From positions 32,001 to 96,000 of the IMG/VR virus record IMGVR_UViG_3300031867_000009: a stretch of DNA of 64,000 nucleotides. One strand, written 5' to 3'. Positions 6,021-63,121 of the stretch are shown in pieces. A model generated the notes under the pieces. The model searched no databases. It was not told the origin of the DNA and was given only the letters and a program-made list of their open reading frames with translations. The stretch comes from a virus (taxonomy: Duplodnaviria > Caudoviricetes). Made by a program: the position numbers and the translations under genes. Numbering within the stretch: position 1 is the stretch's first letter; every line of letters begins with the position of its first letter.

Positions 6021-6535
6021 TCTTCGTCCTCCAAATCGTCTAACACGCTAAAATCAATTGTATATTTAGGTTTTGTTTCATGTCTTTGTATACGCACTTT
6101 CTTTCTTGCTGCAGCTTCGCGCATCTGACGTTCAATCTCTGCGATTGTTCCAGCTGACCTACGTTCACGCGCGGCCCAGTATGCACATGAATCATTATAT
6201 ACAAAAGGAATTATACCAATTCCTCCGTGTCCCTTTTCCCAATCACCATGTTTTACTTCATAAAAATATTTCAACGCAAATAAGATGCCCTTATTGGTCA
6301 TCTTCTCTTTCAAAAACTTTTTACGTTGTGCTTCACATACCCAATAATCATATGTGACTTTGAGGTCGCGCGCGATGAAGTCATAAATTAAATCAACATA
6401 TGCTTCATCATTATCAGGTTGTGCTTTCTTCCAATTTTCATAACACTTCCTATGGTAATAGTAATTTTTGCTGGGCATTACCCAGTCGTCTTTTTCTTTA
6501 TTAATTTCAATTTTACATAATCTACATTGTGCCAT
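6017..6535 (-). CDS. Zn-finger-containing hypothetical protein (possible helicase loader/accessory)
   Basis: CxxC...HxxC at N-terminus; SD AAGGAG; first gene after promoter. Confidence 0.6.
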   Translation of the reverse strand: MAQCRLCKIEINKEKDDWVMPSKNYYYHRKCYENWKKAQPDNDEAYVDLIYDFIARDLKVTYDYWVCEAQRKKFLKEKMTNKGILFALKYFYEVKHGDWEKGHGGIGIIPFVYNDSCAYWAARERRSAGTIAEIERQMREAAARKKVRIQRHETKPKYTIDFSVLDDLEDEE

Positions 6536-6560
6536 AAAAGTCTCCTTTCTTCCTAATTAT

Positions 6561-6589
6561 ATTATATCAGAAAAATAAAAGTTTGTCAA
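6561..6589 (-). promoter_or_regulatory. sigmaA-type promoter
   Basis: aaatTTGACA-17-TATAAT with extended TG. Confidence 0.85.
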
Positions 6590-8614: not shown

Positions 8615-8866
8615 TTACTCCTCGTCCTCGCTTGGAACAAAAGTTTTACCTGCATCTGTCAGAACTACGTATGTGATTGGCTTCTCTGCGCCTTCAACCT
8701 CAACCTTTTCTCTTGCTGCGAGACCCTTCTTTGTGAGGTCAGTTACGTTAGCGCCTACCGAACGCTCTGTTCTGTCAAGTGCCTGTGCAAGCTCAGGAAT
8801 GGAAACCTTTCCGCCATTAGCCTTTACATACTCAAATACTTCATTACTCTTCTCTGTAAGCTTCAT
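8615..8866 (-). CDS. small winged-helix DNA-binding protein
   Basis: ELAQALDRTERSVGANVTDLTKKGL wHTH pattern, LTDAGK. Confidence 0.7.
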   Translation of the reverse strand: MKLTEKSNEVFEYVKANGGKVSIPELAQALDRTERSVGANVTDLTKKGLAAREKVEVEGAEKPITYVVLTDAGKTFVPSEDEE

Positions 8867-8943
8867 AATTTTGTTTTCTCCTTGTTTAAATAAATTTTTA
8901 AATGATTTGTTTTCGCGAAAGTTATCCTTAACTTTCTATAAAT

Positions 8944-40384: not shown

Positions 40385-41851
40385 ATGGCAGATATAAGTA
40401 AAATAACATTACCTTCTGGTAATACTTATGAAATTAAAGACGCCGTAGCTCGTCAGATGATTAGTGGCGGTGTATCATTTATCATTGCTTGGGATGGTAC
40501 TGCTGCACCAGTGGTAGCTAATATACCAGAAGGAGTAGTTATAACCTATAATGGTACTACTTATACTGGTACATTAACAGCCGAAACTAGTGGTACAGAC
40601 CCGCACGCACAAGCTGGAGCGTTTTATTTGGTAAAATCTAGTACAGAACCAAGTTCAGAAACTCTTGACATTTATGATGAATATGTTCCAGTTGGTACAA
40701 CTGGAAGTAAATTCTGGGAAAAAATTGGTGATACCCAAATTAATTTATCTGATGTGGTCACTGGAGTTGTTTTGAATAAACAAACAGATGTAGTACTTGG
40801 AGAGGCTACTACTTTTACAAATTCATCATCATCTGTTACTTTCAGCGGTGGTACTACTGACAAAGTACTTGGTGAAGCTACCACTTTTACAGTTAGTACA
40901 CCAACTATTACAGTTACTCCATCAACTACTAATATTAAAGCCACAGCTAGTGGGACAGCTGTTGGGGCCAATGGTACGGCCGCAGCGGTAACTGGGTATC
41001 CAAATACGACAAGTGATACTTTTGTTAAATCAGTTACAGCAGAAACGGGTAAAAATTTAGTTACAACAAGTATCGTTCCTACTAATGGAACAGAAAGTGT
41101 TTCAAAAGTTACAAAAACAGCTAGTAAATTAGTTACTACTACAATTCCTAATGTAACAGGAAATACTGCGGTTACAATTCCTAATGTTACAAGTAATACA
41201 AGTGTTACTGCAAATAAATCTACTTGGAGTTTTACAATGGGTTCTGGCGATGCATCAGAAACATTAATTATCGGTGGAGGAAATGGAAGTGATGTTACTG
41301 CCACTAATACTGGTCTAGGAACGGCACTTTCAGCTTCAAAAGTAACTTTAGGTACTGCAATTACCGCAGCTACTGGTGCAGTTGCTTCAACCGGTACTGG
41401 TAGTGATATTATAACCGCAGTAACAATAAGCGATAAAACTGTGGCTAAAGTTGGAACTGCAGTTACTGTTGCAACTGGTGCAACAGATGAAAATGGTACA
41501 GGTGATGCAGTTGTTACTGGTGTAACAGTTGGCACTTCTGGTAGTGCTCTTACCGGTCTTGGAACCCCATCAACAGCTACTGCACTTACTGGTGTTAAAG
41601 TTACTACACAACCTACGGTTAGTCTTGCAACTGGTGCTACCGCAGGTACTGGAGTGGTTAGTGTTGCAACTGGAATTAGTTCTGCTAGTTCAACTCAACC
41701 ATCAGTTACTGTTGGAACAAATGATAAAGTTACTGCTGTTACTGGTATTGGAACTGGTACAGCTGCAGCTCAAACAATTACTGTTGGAACAAATGATAAG
41801 GTTACTGCTCTTAAGAGCGACACAAGTCTTACAGTAAACAAAGGTAACTAA
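40385..41851 (+). CDS. Thr-rich fibre-like protein
   Basis: MADISKITLPSG N-terminus, YDEY..WEKIG, T/G/V/A-rich repeats. Confidence 0.65.
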   Translation: MADISKITLPSGNTYEIKDAVARQMISGGVSFIIAWDGTAAPVVANIPEGVVITYNGTTYTGTLTAETSGTDPHAQAGAFYLVKSSTEPSSETLDIYDEYVPVGTTGSKFWEKIGDTQINLSDVVTGVVLNKQTDVVLGEATTFTNSSSSVTFSGGTTDKVLGEATTFTVSTPTITVTPSTTNIKATASGTAVGANGTAAAVTGYPNTTSDTFVKSVTAETGKNLVTTSIVPTNGTESVSKVTKTASKLVTTTIPNVTGNTAVTIPNVTSNTSVTANKSTWSFTMGSGDASETLIIGGGNGSDVTATNTGLGTALSASKVTLGTAITAATGAVASTGTGSDIITAVTISDKTVAKVGTAVTVATGATDENGTGDAVVTGVTVGTSGSALTGLGTPSTATALTGVKVTTQPTVSLATGATAGTGVVSVATGISSASSTQPSVTVGTNDKVTAVTGIGTGTAAAQTITVGTNDKVTALKSDTSLTVNKGN

Positions 41852-41864
41852 GGAGGTGATTTAA

Positions 41865-51083: not shown

Positions 51084-51166
51084 ATTGTCTAAAATCTATA
51101 CTCAACCTCCCAAAAACCCACTTATAAATGGAAATATCTATATCTATCTTAAAGGAGGTAACACAA

Positions 51167-55367: not shown

Positions 55368-55394
55368 TAAAATCTCCTTTCTATTCTTAATTTA

Positions 55395-55423: not shown

Positions 55424-55558
55424 TTTTAATTTTGTTTCATACCATCATTCTATGGCGCTGGCGCGAGTGTAAGGGCAAAAAATTAGATTTCTACTAATTA
55501 TATATACGCGCGCGGGCGCGCACGCGATTTTATCAGAAATTTTTTATTAAATCAAATT

Positions 55559-57558: not shown

Positions 57559-57581
57559 ATATATAGAAAGTTGAGAGAAAA

Positions 57582-57755
57582 ATGAATATCGACGAACTAT
57601 ACGAACAAGCAATGTATCAAGAACATCTTTACTCCATTTGTCAACATCAATGTGATGGTATGAGTAATTGCAAGATGTTCGCGGAGGGTAATGACATAGG
57701 TTGTCTTAAAGCCTATCACTATTATCTCAATTTAATTAAAAATTTACAAACTTAA
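57582..57755 (+). CDS. small Cys-rich protein (not in ORF track)
   Basis: 57 aa MNIDELYEQ..C.HQC....C........C. Confidence 0.5.
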   Translation: MNIDELYEQAMYQEHLYSICQHQCDGMSNCKMFAEGNDIGCLKAYHYYLNLIKNLQT

Positions 57756-57758
57756 AAT

Positions 57759-57787
57759 TTGACGAAATTAAAAAATTCTGCTATAAT
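57759..57787 (+). promoter_or_regulatory. sigmaA-type promoter of the ncRNA operon
   Basis: aaatTTGACG-17-TATAAT with extended TG; no plus-strand ORF of 60 aa or more for 1.27 kb downstream. Confidence 0.85.
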
Positions 57788-57793
57788 TATATT

Positions 57794-57896
57794 ACAAAGT
57801 GAGATGAGAATTAATTTTCTGATTTGGGAAATACATTCACAGGGTGGTGGTCTCTTACTTTCTTTCCTTTCTACCACCACCCTTCCTTACAAGCGT
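57794..57896 (+). ncRNA. candidate sRNA: GC stem with 21-nt pyrimidine anti-SD loop
   Basis: agggtggtggt/accaccaccct stem, loop ctcttactttctttcctttct; bounded by promoter and ribozyme 1. Confidence 0.6.
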
Positions 57897-57978
57897 GGCA
57901 TCATGTAAGTGCCTCCCCGTGGCGATGCTGGAGATATGGGTTTTACTCCGTGGAGACTACCCTTGAGCTAAACTTACA
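57897..57978 (+). ncRNA. HDV-like self-cleaving ribozyme 1 (with P4)
   Basis: P1 ggcatc/gatgct, P2 tgtaagt/acttaca, P3 gcc/ggc, L3 tccccgt, GG for P1.1, P4 gggt..accc, J4/2 gCtaa. Confidence 0.85.
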
Positions 57979-58271
57979 GGCTACCAGGTGAGCAAATGTT
58001 CTGAAAGTCTTATTGGAAAGGATTTGCGGTTAGCTGACCTTAAAGCGACTAGTCAATGGTTGAAGACTTGGATGTGCGGCACCGGCCCCTAAAAGCGGAG
58101 ATACCATATTCTTGGTTTATGAATAGTCAATATAGACCTAAGCTTTGATAAAGCCGTTCAGCTTGCGAAAGGGTTAAGGGTAAGCCGGTTCTAACACACA
58201 TCGAAGGTCGTAGGGAGTATGTGTGAGGAGTGTATGCGTCCCTTAAGGAGTGACGTCCAACGCAGTTTTAT
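57979..58271 (+). ncRNA. unassigned structured RNA (~290 nt)
   Basis: stems aagtctt/aagactt, accggc/gccggt with ccct/aggg, acacat/atgtgt; no ORF; lies between ribozymes 1 and 2. Confidence 0.6.
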
Positions 58272-58324
58272 GGCACCAAGATAGACGCCTTCTCGCGGCG
58301 GTGCTGATTTCGACTAAGTCTATC
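58272..58324 (+). ncRNA. minimal HDV-like (theta-type) ribozyme 2
   Basis: P1 ggcacc/ggtgct, P2 gatagac/gtctatc, P3 gcc/ggc, L3 ttctcgc, no P4, J4/2 aCtaa. Confidence 0.9.
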
Positions 58325-58975
58325 CGAATAATAAGAACTCAGTGTAGATGCACGAAACCAGTGTGCTGAGACACAGGCCGAAAGAGTCAGAGCAACGAAG
58401 CAAGGATACTTGTGGATAGCTGCTGTGCTGTTAGGGCGACCGAAGCAGTGTAGAGCGGTGAGCCGCCAAACTCAAGGTGTGGTGCATTTATTATCGCAAT
58501 CAAAGGCAGCATGTGAGTCGGAGGAGTAATAGAAGCGACGATTAAGAGTCGTCGCTGAATCCGAGTTAGGTATAGGTGTGGCAACTTATACACACCTCGG
58601 AAATGCCAACAATCTTCTTTGCCGTGAAGCGGAGAAATCCGTGTATAAGACTTGCGTGTCGCGTGCGAGTAGCCCAGAGGCAAGACTCAGATAGAGTATG
58701 ACAAAAGCAAGGATGCAGGAAAATCCTTTTATTGCCGTAAGGTGGGTGGAAGTTAGGGGTAGTCATTCCCCTCTAGGATTTGGCGAGAGCTGGGGCATAT
58801 TAGGTTAGGGTCGCTCCCTAGTCTTCGGATATGTCTCCCTAGTGGCTGAATATGGTTGAAGATAGTATGTGTAGGGTGAAAGCTCCTTATTGTTCGTAAA
58901 TATCTAAAGCGAATAGAACCGCATAATAGTTCTATCCAGTGGTGACGGGACCACAGATAATTTCCCGTCATATAT
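58325..58975 (+). ncRNA. large structured RNA (~650 nt; ROOL/GOLLD size class, family unconfirmed)
   Basis: 5' cgaataataag pairs with cttattgttcg (58886-58896); internal hairpins gcgacga/tcgtcgc, agggg/cccct, taggg/cccta, tgacggga/tcccgtca; GC-rich, no plus-strand ORF. Confidence 0.7.
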
Positions 58976-59027
58976 GACACCATTGGGGTTGCCTTCTCGT
59001 GGCGGTGTCGTTTAAAACTAAAACCCT
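58976..59027 (+). ncRNA. minimal HDV-like (theta-type) ribozyme 3
   Basis: P1 gacacc/ggtgtc, P2 ggggtt/aaccct, P3 gcc/ggc, L3 ttctcgt, no P4, J4/2 aCtaa. Confidence 0.85.
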
Positions 59028-59064
59028 TGTTTTTTATTATATAAGAAAAGGAGAGTTATAGGCG

Positions 59065-59355
59065 ATGATAATTTCAAGTGAGATTACAGGAAAAACATAC
59101 AAGACAGTAGAAGAGTGCCTTGCAGCAGAGAAGAAATTTGTAGAAGAAAAAGAAGCAAAAGAGAAAGCAGCAAAAGAACTTGAAGCAAAGAAAGATGAGG
59201 CTTATAAGAAGGCTATCGCAGCTTGTGATGAGTATTTGAAGCTGTGCGGCGTTGAAGTTGAATTTGGCGACCACGGTTATACTATGAAATATCATAGTGA
59301 TGGTAGTCTGGCTGATGCAATTTTTGAGGATATTCTTAATACAATGCTGAAGTAG
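59065..59355 (+). CDS. hypothetical protein
   Basis: SEITGKTY.TVEECL.AE pattern; AAGGAG SD. Confidence 0.75.
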   Translation: MIISSEITGKTYKTVEECLAAEKKFVEEKEAKEKAAKELEAKKDEAYKKAIAACDEYLKLCGVEVEFGDHGYTMKYHSDGSLADAIFEDILNTMLK

Positions 59356-59830: not shown

Positions 59831-59889
59831 AATTTTCTTTTTTATTATATTTTTGATATAATATAAGAAAGTAAGAAAGGAGATTTGTA

Positions 59890-61425: not shown

Positions 61426-61454
61426 TATTATAGAAAGTGAGAGAGGTATTAATT

Positions 61455-61676: not shown

Positions 61677-61707
61677 CCTGGTCAGTGCGGCGTTGCAGGA
61701 GTATAAT

Positions 61708-62337
61708 ATGGCATATATTTATAAAATCACAAACAATATAAATCAAAAGGTTTATATTGGTCAAACAATTATGACTCCTGTACAGCGATGGCAAAAGCAC
61801 AGGAGTGATGCAAAATTAAATAAACCCTATCCACTATATAGGGCTATGAATAAATATGGTATTGATAATTTTTCATTTGAAATTCTCGAAGAAGTAAAAG
61901 TTGAAGAATTAGATGAAAAAGAACGATATTATATTAATTTATATCATTCTTATATTAATTTTGAAAATAGTAATGGATACAATGCTACATTGGGTGGTAG
62001 TAAAGGTAATCATTACTTTAATCCTTGTATTAATGAAGTTATTGAATGTGCTCAATATATGACTATTAATCAATTAGCTAATCATTTTGGGGTTGGATAT
62101 GCTACAATGAAAAATTATTTACATAATTATAATATTCAACCACAAAAAGGTAGAACTGGTGGTGGAGATAAAAGTATTGCTCAAATAGATATAAATACAA
62201 ATGAAATCATTCAAATTTTTCCAAGCATTGCTGATGCTTCAAGATTTTTTGGTAAAATACCAAAAAATTCTGGCATTAGAGATGTATTAAAAGGAAAAAG
62301 AAAAACTGCTTATGGATATAAGTGGAAGTATATATAA
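61708..62337 (+). CDS. GIY-YIG homing endonuclease with NUMOD1-like C-terminus
   Basis: YIYKITN..KVYIGQT..RW..H, ERYYI, GYN...GG; FPSIADA...KTAYGYKWKY. Confidence 0.85.
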   Translation: MAYIYKITNNINQKVYIGQTIMTPVQRWQKHRSDAKLNKPYPLYRAMNKYGIDNFSFEILEEVKVEELDEKERYYINLYHSYINFENSNGYNATLGGSKGNHYFNPCINEVIECAQYMTINQLANHFGVGYATMKNYLHNYNIQPQKGRTGGGDKSIAQIDINTNEIIQIFPSIADASRFFGKIPKNSGIRDVLKGKRKTAYGYKWKYI

Positions 62338-62382
62338 CAAAAATTTTATAATAGTATATTTTATCGGTAAGTTACCGTTATT

Positions 62383-62483
62383 TGACCACACCAGCGCGGC
62401 GATGCAGAAAGGTCGTTAAAAACAGGGCTGCCGCATCTAAAAAAAGAGTGGCTCGACCCACTGCTGCATAGCGGAGGGCCCAG
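62383..62483 (+). ncRNA. structured RNA candidate
   Basis: tgacc/ggtcg stem + ttaaaaa; gggc/gccc and ccgc/gcgg enclosing gtgg-ctcgac-ccac hairpin. Confidence 0.45.
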
Positions 62484-62494
62484 AGCTTCTTCTT

Positions 62495-62561
62495 GGGATT
62501 GTATCTGCGGAGAAAGGATTAGCGTCAGCTAGTTTAGGGAGTTCGAACCTTCCCAATCCCA
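62495..62561 (+). ncRNA. tRNA-like element (intact acceptor and T arms, aberrant D/anticodon arms)
   Basis: gggattg/caatccc, gggag-TTCGAAC-cttcc, anticodon-like stem with 4-nt GTCA loop, no CCA. Confidence 0.7.
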
Positions 62562-62566
62562 TCTAT

Positions 62567-62692
62567 TGTCGGACGGCTACCGACGTTAAATAAGGCACAG
62601 CGTTAGCATTGATTTGGTAGTTACACTACAGCGAAGGCCGGTTACATGGGAGAATAAGGAAACGGCAATGTGCTGCTTAGGAACAAACGCTA
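62567..62692 (+). ncRNA. structured RNA candidate with pistol-like 5' module
   Basis: gtcgg/ccgac + gttaaata; agcgtt/aacgct, agca..ttg/caa..tgct, gtag/ctac. Confidence 0.5.
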
Positions 62693-62731
62693 TATCAAAG
62701 AGGTCAAGAAAATTACCCTCCCTATTTATTT

Positions 62732-63062
62732 CGTAGGTAGACAAGCATTAAAAGTCACTAAGACAATAGGAGCCCTTGTAGTGGAAAGCAGTGGGGAGAC
62801 ACCACAGAAGGCGGCGGTGGACGGACAGAAGCTATATGCCAGACACAAATCCGCGTAAGCTACCTCAGTTACGAGTCGTTGAATCCACGTGGGATGCGCG
62901 TGATTGAAACTGCACGCCCTACGATTATATAGTTAATGCAGGACATAAGGGCCTGAGGTTGGCGGGCAACGATAAAATCCGAAACTGATGCAGACCTCTG
63001 CGCGCCTCTTAGGGGTAAGTCATTATGACGAAGCTTCCCTTACGCGTACCAGGCAGAGGTTG
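62732..63062 (+). ncRNA. structured RNA candidate (~330 nt, pseudoknotted)
   Basis: long-range cgtagg/cctacg, gcccttgt/ataagggc, acctcag/ctgaggt; terminal acctctgc/gcagaggt stem. Confidence 0.55.
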
Positions 63063-63077
63063 TTTTATAGGTGAATT

Positions 63078-63121
63078 GTGTATGCGGCCGCCCATGTTTA
63101 TACATGGACGACCGCGCGCAC
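63078..63121 (+). repeat. GC-rich hairpin before SD
   Basis: gtgtatgcggccgc-ccatgt-ttat-acatgg-acgaccgcgcgcac. Confidence 0.6.

Follow-up and report, generated by a model that had tools for sequence, protein, structure and literature searches.

The sequence analysed was a stretch of 64,000 nucleotides (nt), referred to as the window, that covers bases 32001-96000 of an uncultured phage record in IMG/VR (complete, 135,306 bp). A hairpin at 57841-57883 was found to open a non-coding RNA operon of the phage as its first unit. Comparison with relatives indicates that this hairpin is a conserved RNA element whose loop, predicted to be single-stranded, is selected for its sequence. The conserved loop octamer, UCCUUUCU, copies the 3' tail of 16S ribosomal RNA (rRNA). 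The anatomy as a whole, comprising the conserved hairpin, the displayed 16S-tail mimic and a ribozyme on its 3' side, is well supported in silico. The phage's own whole genome is labelled G000 below; the other G and L labels denote relatives, which are related rumen phage contigs.

The operon is ordered promoter, hairpin RNA, ribozyme 1, an RNA of ~290 nt, ribozyme 2, ROOL RNA, ribozyme 3 and an open reading frame (ORF) designated ORF-X, and comprises more than 1.2 kb of structured untranslated RNA (coordinates in Table 1). The hairpin is positioned ~50 nt after the consensus promoter and 13 nt before the start of ribozyme 1 at 57897, and opens a GC-rich stretch without a long ORF (57840-58950). 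The start of the RNA was predicted at ~57794 because of the consensus promoter at 57759-57787.

An earlier note on this DNA had described an 11-bp stem with a nearly all-pyrimidine loop, and the sequence is as described. The stem arms are AGGGTGGTGGT (57841-57851) and ACCACCACCCT (57873-57883), and 20 of the 21 nt of the loop (57852-57872) are pyrimidines. The fold energy of the single window sequence is unexceptional (z -1.7). Relatives were gathered via the neighbouring ligase, two DNA patterns and whole-contig searches, and 12 distinct sequence versions of the hairpin were obtained from related contigs, with one copy per genome. MAFFT alignments of the hairpins (A1-A3) disagreed with the structure and a covariance-model alignment was used instead. 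Compensatory changes were present in 12/12 stem pairs of this alignment (ten versions), and the share of cells that were paired was 89%, versus 59% after shuffling and no more than 64% with the partner slid, values that favour pairing somewhat, the alignment having been fitted to the model structure. The structure was assigned to + strand RNA because G-U pairs occur on the + strand only, and a reading of the hairpin as a minus-strand Shine-Dalgarno (SD) sequence or ORF was rejected.

The stems share almost no sequence between versions, the 5' arm being always purine-rich and the 3' arm always pyrimidine-rich. Despite these wholly different stems, UCCUUUCU was kept adjoining the 3' arm in 11 of the 12 versions (the L015 loop has UCCUUUCC in its place), and the variable part of the loop is its 5' half. 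The G001 loop lengthens the octamer motif to CCUCCUUUCU. When 11 versions were folded as modelled released RNAs of 57-103 nt, the predicted probability that the octamer is unpaired was 0.86-1.00. The earlier note had also proposed that the loop can pair with the 5' end of its own RNA; AAAGUGAGA (57796-57804) can indeed pair with UCUUACUUU of the loop, but the loop stays unpaired in the ensemble fold. The hairpin is preceded by an equivalent promoter in all versions except L014 (11/12).

Rfam 15, searched at E up to 10, contained no family for the hairpin, and the sole overlap was a chance U6atac match on the opposite strand (13.5 bits, E=2). A pattern scan of bacterial genomes returned at least 120 chance-like matches, none of them with the hairpin, and is uninformative on its absence. 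Two further model matches in the phage's own genome (127055 and 19216) are terminator-like hairpins and were discarded as copies. The hairpin itself was rejected as an intrinsic terminator on account of its 21-nt loop, the UCCUUAC in place of a U-tract after the stem and the lack of a call in a terminator scan. It was also rejected as a 5'-terminal stabiliser stem-loop of the aprE/ermC type, as 47 nt precede the stem in the window and the predicted ribozyme would detach the hairpin from the downstream RNA.

The octamer is the exact complement of AGAAAGGA, of which the 135-kb genome has 36 occurrences where base composition predicts 5.3. Of these 36, 29 lie 2-13 nt ahead of the start codon of an ORF with 40 codons or more, and AGAAAGGA was for this reason identified as an SD. 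The 3' end of Bacillota 16S rRNA, which we take to be ...CACCUCCUUUCU, has the loop octamer as its last eight nt, the mRNA-binding tail. SDs of the GAAAGG type were found at 17 of 21 genes with a consensus promoter at most 80 nt upstream versus 14 of 161 others (Fisher p=3e-12). The AGAAAGGA(G/A) form is the SD of genes directly behind consensus sigmaA promoters and pairs with the extreme 16S tail; GGAGG(U) is the main SD of structural and replication genes. The same early-SD bias was found in the relatives G003 and G004.

Duplexes of the loop core averaged -10.6 kcal/mol at promoter-proximal ribosome-binding sites (RBSs) versus -6.0 kcal/mol at other genes (p=1e-9), and these promoter-proximal sites pair less well with a 16S core that lacks the tail. 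Containing the tail and lacking the CCUCC core, the loop is complementary specifically to the early-type class. The matches to early-gene leaders claimed in the earlier note were largely recovered. That at 59865-59876 (AAGAAAGTAAGA) pairs 12/12 with no G-U just after the -10 box. That at 61432-61443 (AGAAAGTGAGAG) is real, pairs over 12 nt with one G-U and likewise directly follows a -10 box. Related leaders placed near 55380(-) and 6545(-) correspond to SD-type matches at 55373-55382(-) and 6541-6550(-). The general form of the claim stood as far as a class of promoter-proximal RBSs is concerned; the loop matches the generic early-class SD AGAAAGGA and shows no tailoring to individual leaders.

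Several consensus promoters that have no start codon close by (RNA operons) are followed by a second leader class, AUAGAAAGU(U)GAGAGAG. The hairpin's 5' arm looks as if it derives from this leader, and the leader might be a polypurine 5' stabiliser.

A predicted ribozyme follows the hairpin in most versions. In nine it is a probable twister-P1 (Rfam RF03160, E 3e-4 to 2e-10, 36-57 bits, all below the gathering score of 67.2), and in three, the window included, it is hepatitis delta virus (HDV)-like. The predicted cleavage site is located 11-13 nt past the stem in 11/12 versions, mostly after ...ACGU or ...GCGU. The nested double pseudoknot that defines HDV-like or theta ribozymes, P1.1 included, was found at 57897-57978. 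This ribozyme 1 has P1 6/6 paired with a G-U at its base, P2 7/7 paired, P3 GCC/GGC, L3 UCCCCGU and the C in J4/2 (CUAA). Twelve distinct copies of the fold were collected from the window and relatives. P1 is 6/6 paired in all of them, with six different sequences and a G-U at the cleavage site; P2 covaries (6-7 of 6-8 pairs), P3 is GCC/GGC, L3 is UYCNCGY and J4/2 has the C of CYRA. Rfam HDV models run at E up to 10 gave no match in the window and do not score these folds, so the HDV-like assignment rests on structure. Ribozymes of the HDV-like type cleave at their own 5' end, and the leader RNA would accordingly be terminated by ribozyme 1 at U57896. Cleavage between U57896 and G57897 is supported in silico and would create the 3' end where the earlier note had placed it, presumably as a 2',3'-cyclic phosphate. 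In relatives that carry a twister, the 13-nt tail would contain the 5' strand of twister P1, a pairing checked by eye only.

In L133 and L134, the unit from promoter to cleavage site is 96% identical to that of the window, with hairpin and tail identical through ...acaagcgt. Past this point a twister follows in L133 and L134 versus an HDV-like ribozyme in the window, and the window's ribozyme 1 recurs in L133 ~500 nt farther on, directly before ROOL. From this comparison, RNA modules are shuffled as 'ribozyme plus RNA' cassettes with borders at the predicted cleavage sites. The G001 version has no ribozyme; its hairpin is located 27 nt before the start codon of the ORF-X homologue, and ROOL follows 2 kb on, behind other promoters.

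ROOL was identified in the window as a full-length match to Rfam RF03087 (model positions 1-574, 304.8 bits versus a gathering score of 99.1), and an Rfam E-value scan gave no family for the RNA at 57897-58313. Hairpin and ROOL are on the same strand, with the hairpin upstream, in the 13 contigs that allowed the check. The distance between them ranges from ~70 nt to ~2.5 kb, and the hairpin is therefore not considered to belong to the ROOL fold. In L089, hairpin, twister and HDV-like ribozyme are present without ROOL, the G005 fragment has ROOL with no hairpin found, and the complete relative G003 is without hairpin, ROOL and ORF-X. A search for ROOL in Staphylococcus phage K found nothing. 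ORF-X follows the RNA cassettes, usually right behind ROOL or the last ribozyme, in the relatives where it was located. It encodes a charged protein of 96 amino acids (aa) with a conserved N-terminus, MIxxxExTGxxY/F...EC, and gave no Pfam or confident PHROG match and no informative family or Atlas neighbour. Hairpin, ROOL and ORF-X co-occur in G000, G002 and G004; the same holds for G001 on the strength of a protein match that is weaker and N-terminal.

Several further modules were observed among these cassettes. Elements of ~82 nt directly upstream of ROOL score as transfer-messenger RNA (tmRNA; tRNA-like domain only, 43-57 bits). A conserved module of ~95 nt follows the twister in four relatives, and L004 and L133 have another conserved module there. 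The window RNA at 57979-58271 has a sub-module in common with L004, L005 and L135. In L009, a weak HDV-F-prausnitzii match (6516-6573, 30.7 bits) is situated immediately 3' of a tRNA (6442-6515), in a theta-ribozyme arrangement.

Contigs from four independent rumen metatranscriptomes hold the 57913-58227 RNA and ROOL (58311-58906) as separate pieces, and both RNAs are thus present in RNA libraries. No listed piece spans the predicted cleavage sites at 57897 or 58272. The same contigs do not cover 57600-57912 or the flanking ORFs and are uninformative on a structured hairpin RNA of ~100 nt.

Table 1. Features of the hairpin locus and related elements, in window coordinates unless a relative is named
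Feature	Position	Strand	Basis or remark
Sigma-70/sigmaA-type promoter, TTGACG-17-TGnTATAAT	57759..57787	+	11/12 consensus matches, TG-extended -10
Predicted released RNA, ~103 nt: 5'-ppp leader, small hairpin, pyrimidine-loop hairpin, 13-nt tail ...AAGCGU	57794..57896	+	start from -10 box, end from HDV-like cut site
Conserved hairpin: 11-bp stem, 21-nt loop	57841..57883	+	fold and covariation
Loop octamer UCCUUUCU, complement of early-class SD AGAAAGGA	57865..57872	+	kept in 11/12 versions
13-nt tail, stem to cleavage site	57884..57896	+	identical in L133 through ...acaagcgt
HDV-like (theta-type) ribozyme 1, predicted cut U57896/G57897 at own 5' end	57897..57978	+	fold and covarying copies
HDV-like ribozyme 2, minimal form, fused to ROOL 5' end	58272..58324	+	fold
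ROOL RNA	58314..58904	+	Rfam RF03087
HDV-like ribozyme 3, minimal form, directly before RBS of next ORF	58976..59028	+	fold
ORF-X, 96 aa, no family match	59065..59355	+	after RNA cassettes
SD class examples (from whole genome G000)	55373-55382, 6541-6550	-
SD class examples (from whole genome G000)	41850-41859, 51151-51161	+
AUAGAAAGU-type leader class	61432-61444, 57559-57575		also at other G000 promoters
tmRNA-scoring elements	L013 1678-1759, L014 2253-2335, L009 7119-7199, L016 117-198, L010 9214-9296		directly upstream of ROOL
~95-nt post-twister module, approximate	L009 6168-6270, L013 2350-2450, L014 2620-2715, L016 760-855

The function that we tentatively favour, with rather less than even confidence, is that of a released small RNA which pairs with early-class SDs as a trans-acting anti-SD mimic. 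Transcription from the promoter would yield a leader with a very stable hairpin, and ribozyme 1 would cut at its own 5' end to give a free RNA of ~103 nt (57-90 nt in relatives). The stem would need only to pair, and the loop would display the octamer single-stranded. The free RNA would build up from the strong promoter, its loop would pair with early-class SDs in competition with the 16S 3' tail, and initiation on early messages would be reduced. The targets would be early-type AGAAAGGAG leaders, with GGAGG-type late messages spared. The fuller proposal, that a 16S-tail mimic cut from the ROOL operon transcript by interchangeable ribozymes masks AGAAAGGA and spares GGAGG as an RNA-only early-to-late switch, is more doubtful. 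Silencing of the host, offered as an option in the earlier note, looks less probable than self-regulation, since there is no CCUCC core in the loop.

Action as an anti-SD mimic in trans would explain why the loop is invariant and displayed single-stranded, why its match is class-specific and why a ribozyme, whether twister or HDV-like, is kept at a fixed distance. Structure, conservation, ribozyme position and class-specific complementarity were established in silico. Cleavage in vivo, the existence and accumulation of the small RNA, its action in trans and its timing are inferred, and other considerations weigh against the proposal. Release is not obligatory, since the G001 hairpin, 27 nt before the ORF-X start, has no ribozyme, which makes a role in cis or as a protein operator possible, and the near-constant place of the hairpin as first element after the promoter also suits a cis role. 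Because one promoter class drives both the hairpin and the supposed targets, a delay could arise only through differential stability, which is assumed. An effect would also require the RNA to compete with abundant ribosomes.

The complementarity data weigh on both sides. Against shuffled controls, the comparison set out in the earlier note, the conserved 10-nt core performed well (z -3.3, 1/200 shuffles as good; 16S anti-SD control z -3.4), but the whole 21-nt loop exceeded shuffled loops by a weak margin only (z -1.7, 8/200 as good, 57 promoter-defined leaders). No co-evolution was detected between loops and the promoter-proximal RBSs of their own genomes (centred diagonal -0.04, 285/720 permutations as low, six genomes), and the loop does not track the ORF-X RBS across versions. 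A search for an orthologous special target with extended complementarity gave one weak pair only. As the complementarity is generic to the whole SD class, no specific target can be named, and as G003 has the same SD bias without hairpin or ROOL, the SD class is independent of the hairpin.

Among other explanations, an operator or decoy for a protein was considered, which we regard as unlikely. Here the loop would be recognised by ORF-X, in autoregulation, or by a host factor that binds the 16S tail, the stem would be a mere scaffold, and the freed hairpin would titrate the protein. An invariant loop on a freely covarying stem is typical of protein-recognised hairpins, phage coat-protein and RegA-type operators being analogues. 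The shared occurrence of hairpin, ROOL and ORF-X, and their joint absence from G003, speak for this reading, and the G001 hairpin, lying in the ORF-X 5' untranslated region without a ribozyme, has the classic layout of a translational operator. However, ORF-X has no recognisable RNA-binding domain or family match, in most versions the hairpin would be cut off the ORF-X message, which therefore leaves no operator action in cis there, and it would have to be coincidence that the loop is identical to the complement of the SD class which the phage itself uses.

The hairpin could alternatively be a leader module acting in cis without function in trans, which again seems improbable to us. An SD-like, purine-rich initial transcribed region would be locked in the hairpin and discarded by the first ribozyme; locking would stop ribosome loading and interference with ribozyme folding, the useful RNAs would be left with 5'-OH ends, and the unit would be a natural counterpart of synthetic insulators. 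With its GAGAGGG-type sequence, the 5' arm is a continuation of the AGAAAGU(U)GAGAGAG leader found at other promoters of the same phages that lack the hairpin, and the hairpin comes straight after a consensus promoter in 11/12 versions while the downstream modules shuffle. As each RNA cassette starts with its own ribozyme, the ribozyme after the hairpin may reflect cassette structure and not selection for a 3' end. The eight loop nt kept across wholly different stems are left unexplained, though, and a discarded leader needs no conserved 13-nt spacing. With 47 nt ahead of the stem in the window, the hairpin is not a 5'-terminal protective stem-loop. Nor, by a geometric argument, can the loop reach the adjacent AGAAAG leader in compact versions; a cis pseudoknot between the two was rejected, as one linker nt would have to cross a 12-bp helix.

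We consider it highly unlikely that the hairpin acts on transcription as a nut/boxA- or put-like element, by which RNA polymerase would be modified for read-through of the untranslated, hairpin-rich operon. The promoter-proximal place is nearly obligatory and the operon contains more than 1.2 kb of untranslated structured RNA, as would suit such an element. Some loops, such as those with CUCUUA (window) and UGUUCUUUC (L110), are boxA-like when compared with what we take to be the boxA consensus, but these letters fall in the variable 5' half of the loop and the conserved part is UCCUUUCU. Put-type and nut-type elements reportedly need a tether to the polymerase, which cleavage 13 nt downstream would sever, and other RNA operons of the same genome start without a hairpin.

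That no RNA element exists, and that the hairpin is instead an inverted repeat arisen by chance, the intrinsic terminator of the gene upstream or part of a small ORF (ATG 57804 to TAA 57908, 34 codons), is scarcely credible, because the in-frame ATG after GTGAG and the unremarkable single-sequence fold energy are set against covariation in all 12 pairs, a position downstream of a promoter with no U-tract after the stem, and a small ORF that is absent or out of frame in relatives and whose codons are not preserved by the compensatory stem changes.

Small RNAs with pyrimidine-rich seeds provide the closest precedent for pairing of the anti-SD mimic with early-class SDs. RsaE and RNAIII of Staphylococcus each carry a stable hairpin with a pyrimidine-rich single-stranded motif complementary to SD regions. 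In RsaA, pairing of a C/U-rich loop with SD regions blocks 30S binding, an established mode of repression by small RNAs in Bacillota (PMC3961350). Like these three RNAs, the phage hairpin shows an accessible C/U-rich loop on a stable stem, with SD complementarity beyond that given by base composition. They are chromosomal, with intrinsic terminators, UCCC-type seeds and defined regulons, whereas the phage hairpin is phage-encoded, would be ended by a ribozyme and copies the 16S tail UCCUUUCU instead of the CCUCC core.

The T4 endoribonuclease RegB cuts GGAG and thereby inactivates the SDs of early messages and ends early translation. The likeness is a functional analogy only: early SDs would be inactivated in both cases, by a protein nuclease in T4 and here by an RNA that masks AGAAAGGA through pairing. 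In synthetic insulators of the RiboJ type, a self-cleaving ribozyme just after the promoter strips the promoter-derived leader. The phage unit differs in being natural, in having a hairpin upstream of the cut and in the conserved loop.

Theta ribozymes are described as minimal HDV-like ribozymes directly 3' of phage tRNAs in gut-phage arrays, where they would set the 3' end of the RNA (Kienbeck et al. 2024, PMC10879173, in the parts consulted). The arrangement in the window is similar, with an HDV-like ribozyme directly 3' of a small RNA in a phage RNA array. It differs in that the upstream product would be a hairpin with an anti-SD-like loop and not a tRNA, and in that twister-P1 takes the same place in most relatives. 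ROOL RNA operons of phages have a tRNA-rich genomic context like that found here, according to the portions used of PMC5737381 and PMC12286853. The portions of the ROOL and theta-ribozyme papers covered by term or passage contain no mention of a leader hairpin, and those of the cryo-EM paper none of flanking ribozymes.

Almost all sequencing runs that contain the window stretch come from metagenomes of the bovine gut or rumen. Among the proteins encoded by the genome are subunits of topoisomerase II, a DNA ligase of the ATP-dependent type and a GIY-YIG homing endonuclease. When the region and one large ORF were compared by BLAST with a deposited-phage collection, no match and no close relative were obtained. 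The GIY-YIG/NUMOD homing endonuclease (61693-62337) is followed by a GC-rich, ORF-free block (62340-63100), and in the relative L135 a group I intron (8738-8925, 54.4 bits) was found within the tRNA region. An alternating GC-rich block of ~20 nt (CGCGTGCGCGCCCGCGCG, minus strand) lies in AT-rich DNA between divergent promoters at 55505-55527. Similar blocks were seen in promoter-rich stretches of L011, L014, L015, L016, L133 and L135. The chance expectation is 0.01.

Anti-SD seed RNAs and ribozyme-processed phage RNA arrays are both known; new, relative to the parts of the literature covered, would be their combination, in which interchangeable ribozymes free a mimic of the 16S tail from a ROOL operon. 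Two results are new and useful for the annotation of rumen and gut phages regardless of the function of the hairpin. The first is the split of SDs, with AGAAAGGA behind consensus promoters and GGAGG elsewhere; the second is the modular 'ribozyme plus RNA' cassette with junctions at cleavage sites. If the hairpin RNA is released and masks early-class RBSs, it would constitute a purely RNA-based temporal switch of phage translation, and a natural case of one small RNA being made by either of two unrelated, interchanged ribozyme classes. ROOL operons gain their first co-transcribed partner with a testable, translation-linked activity.

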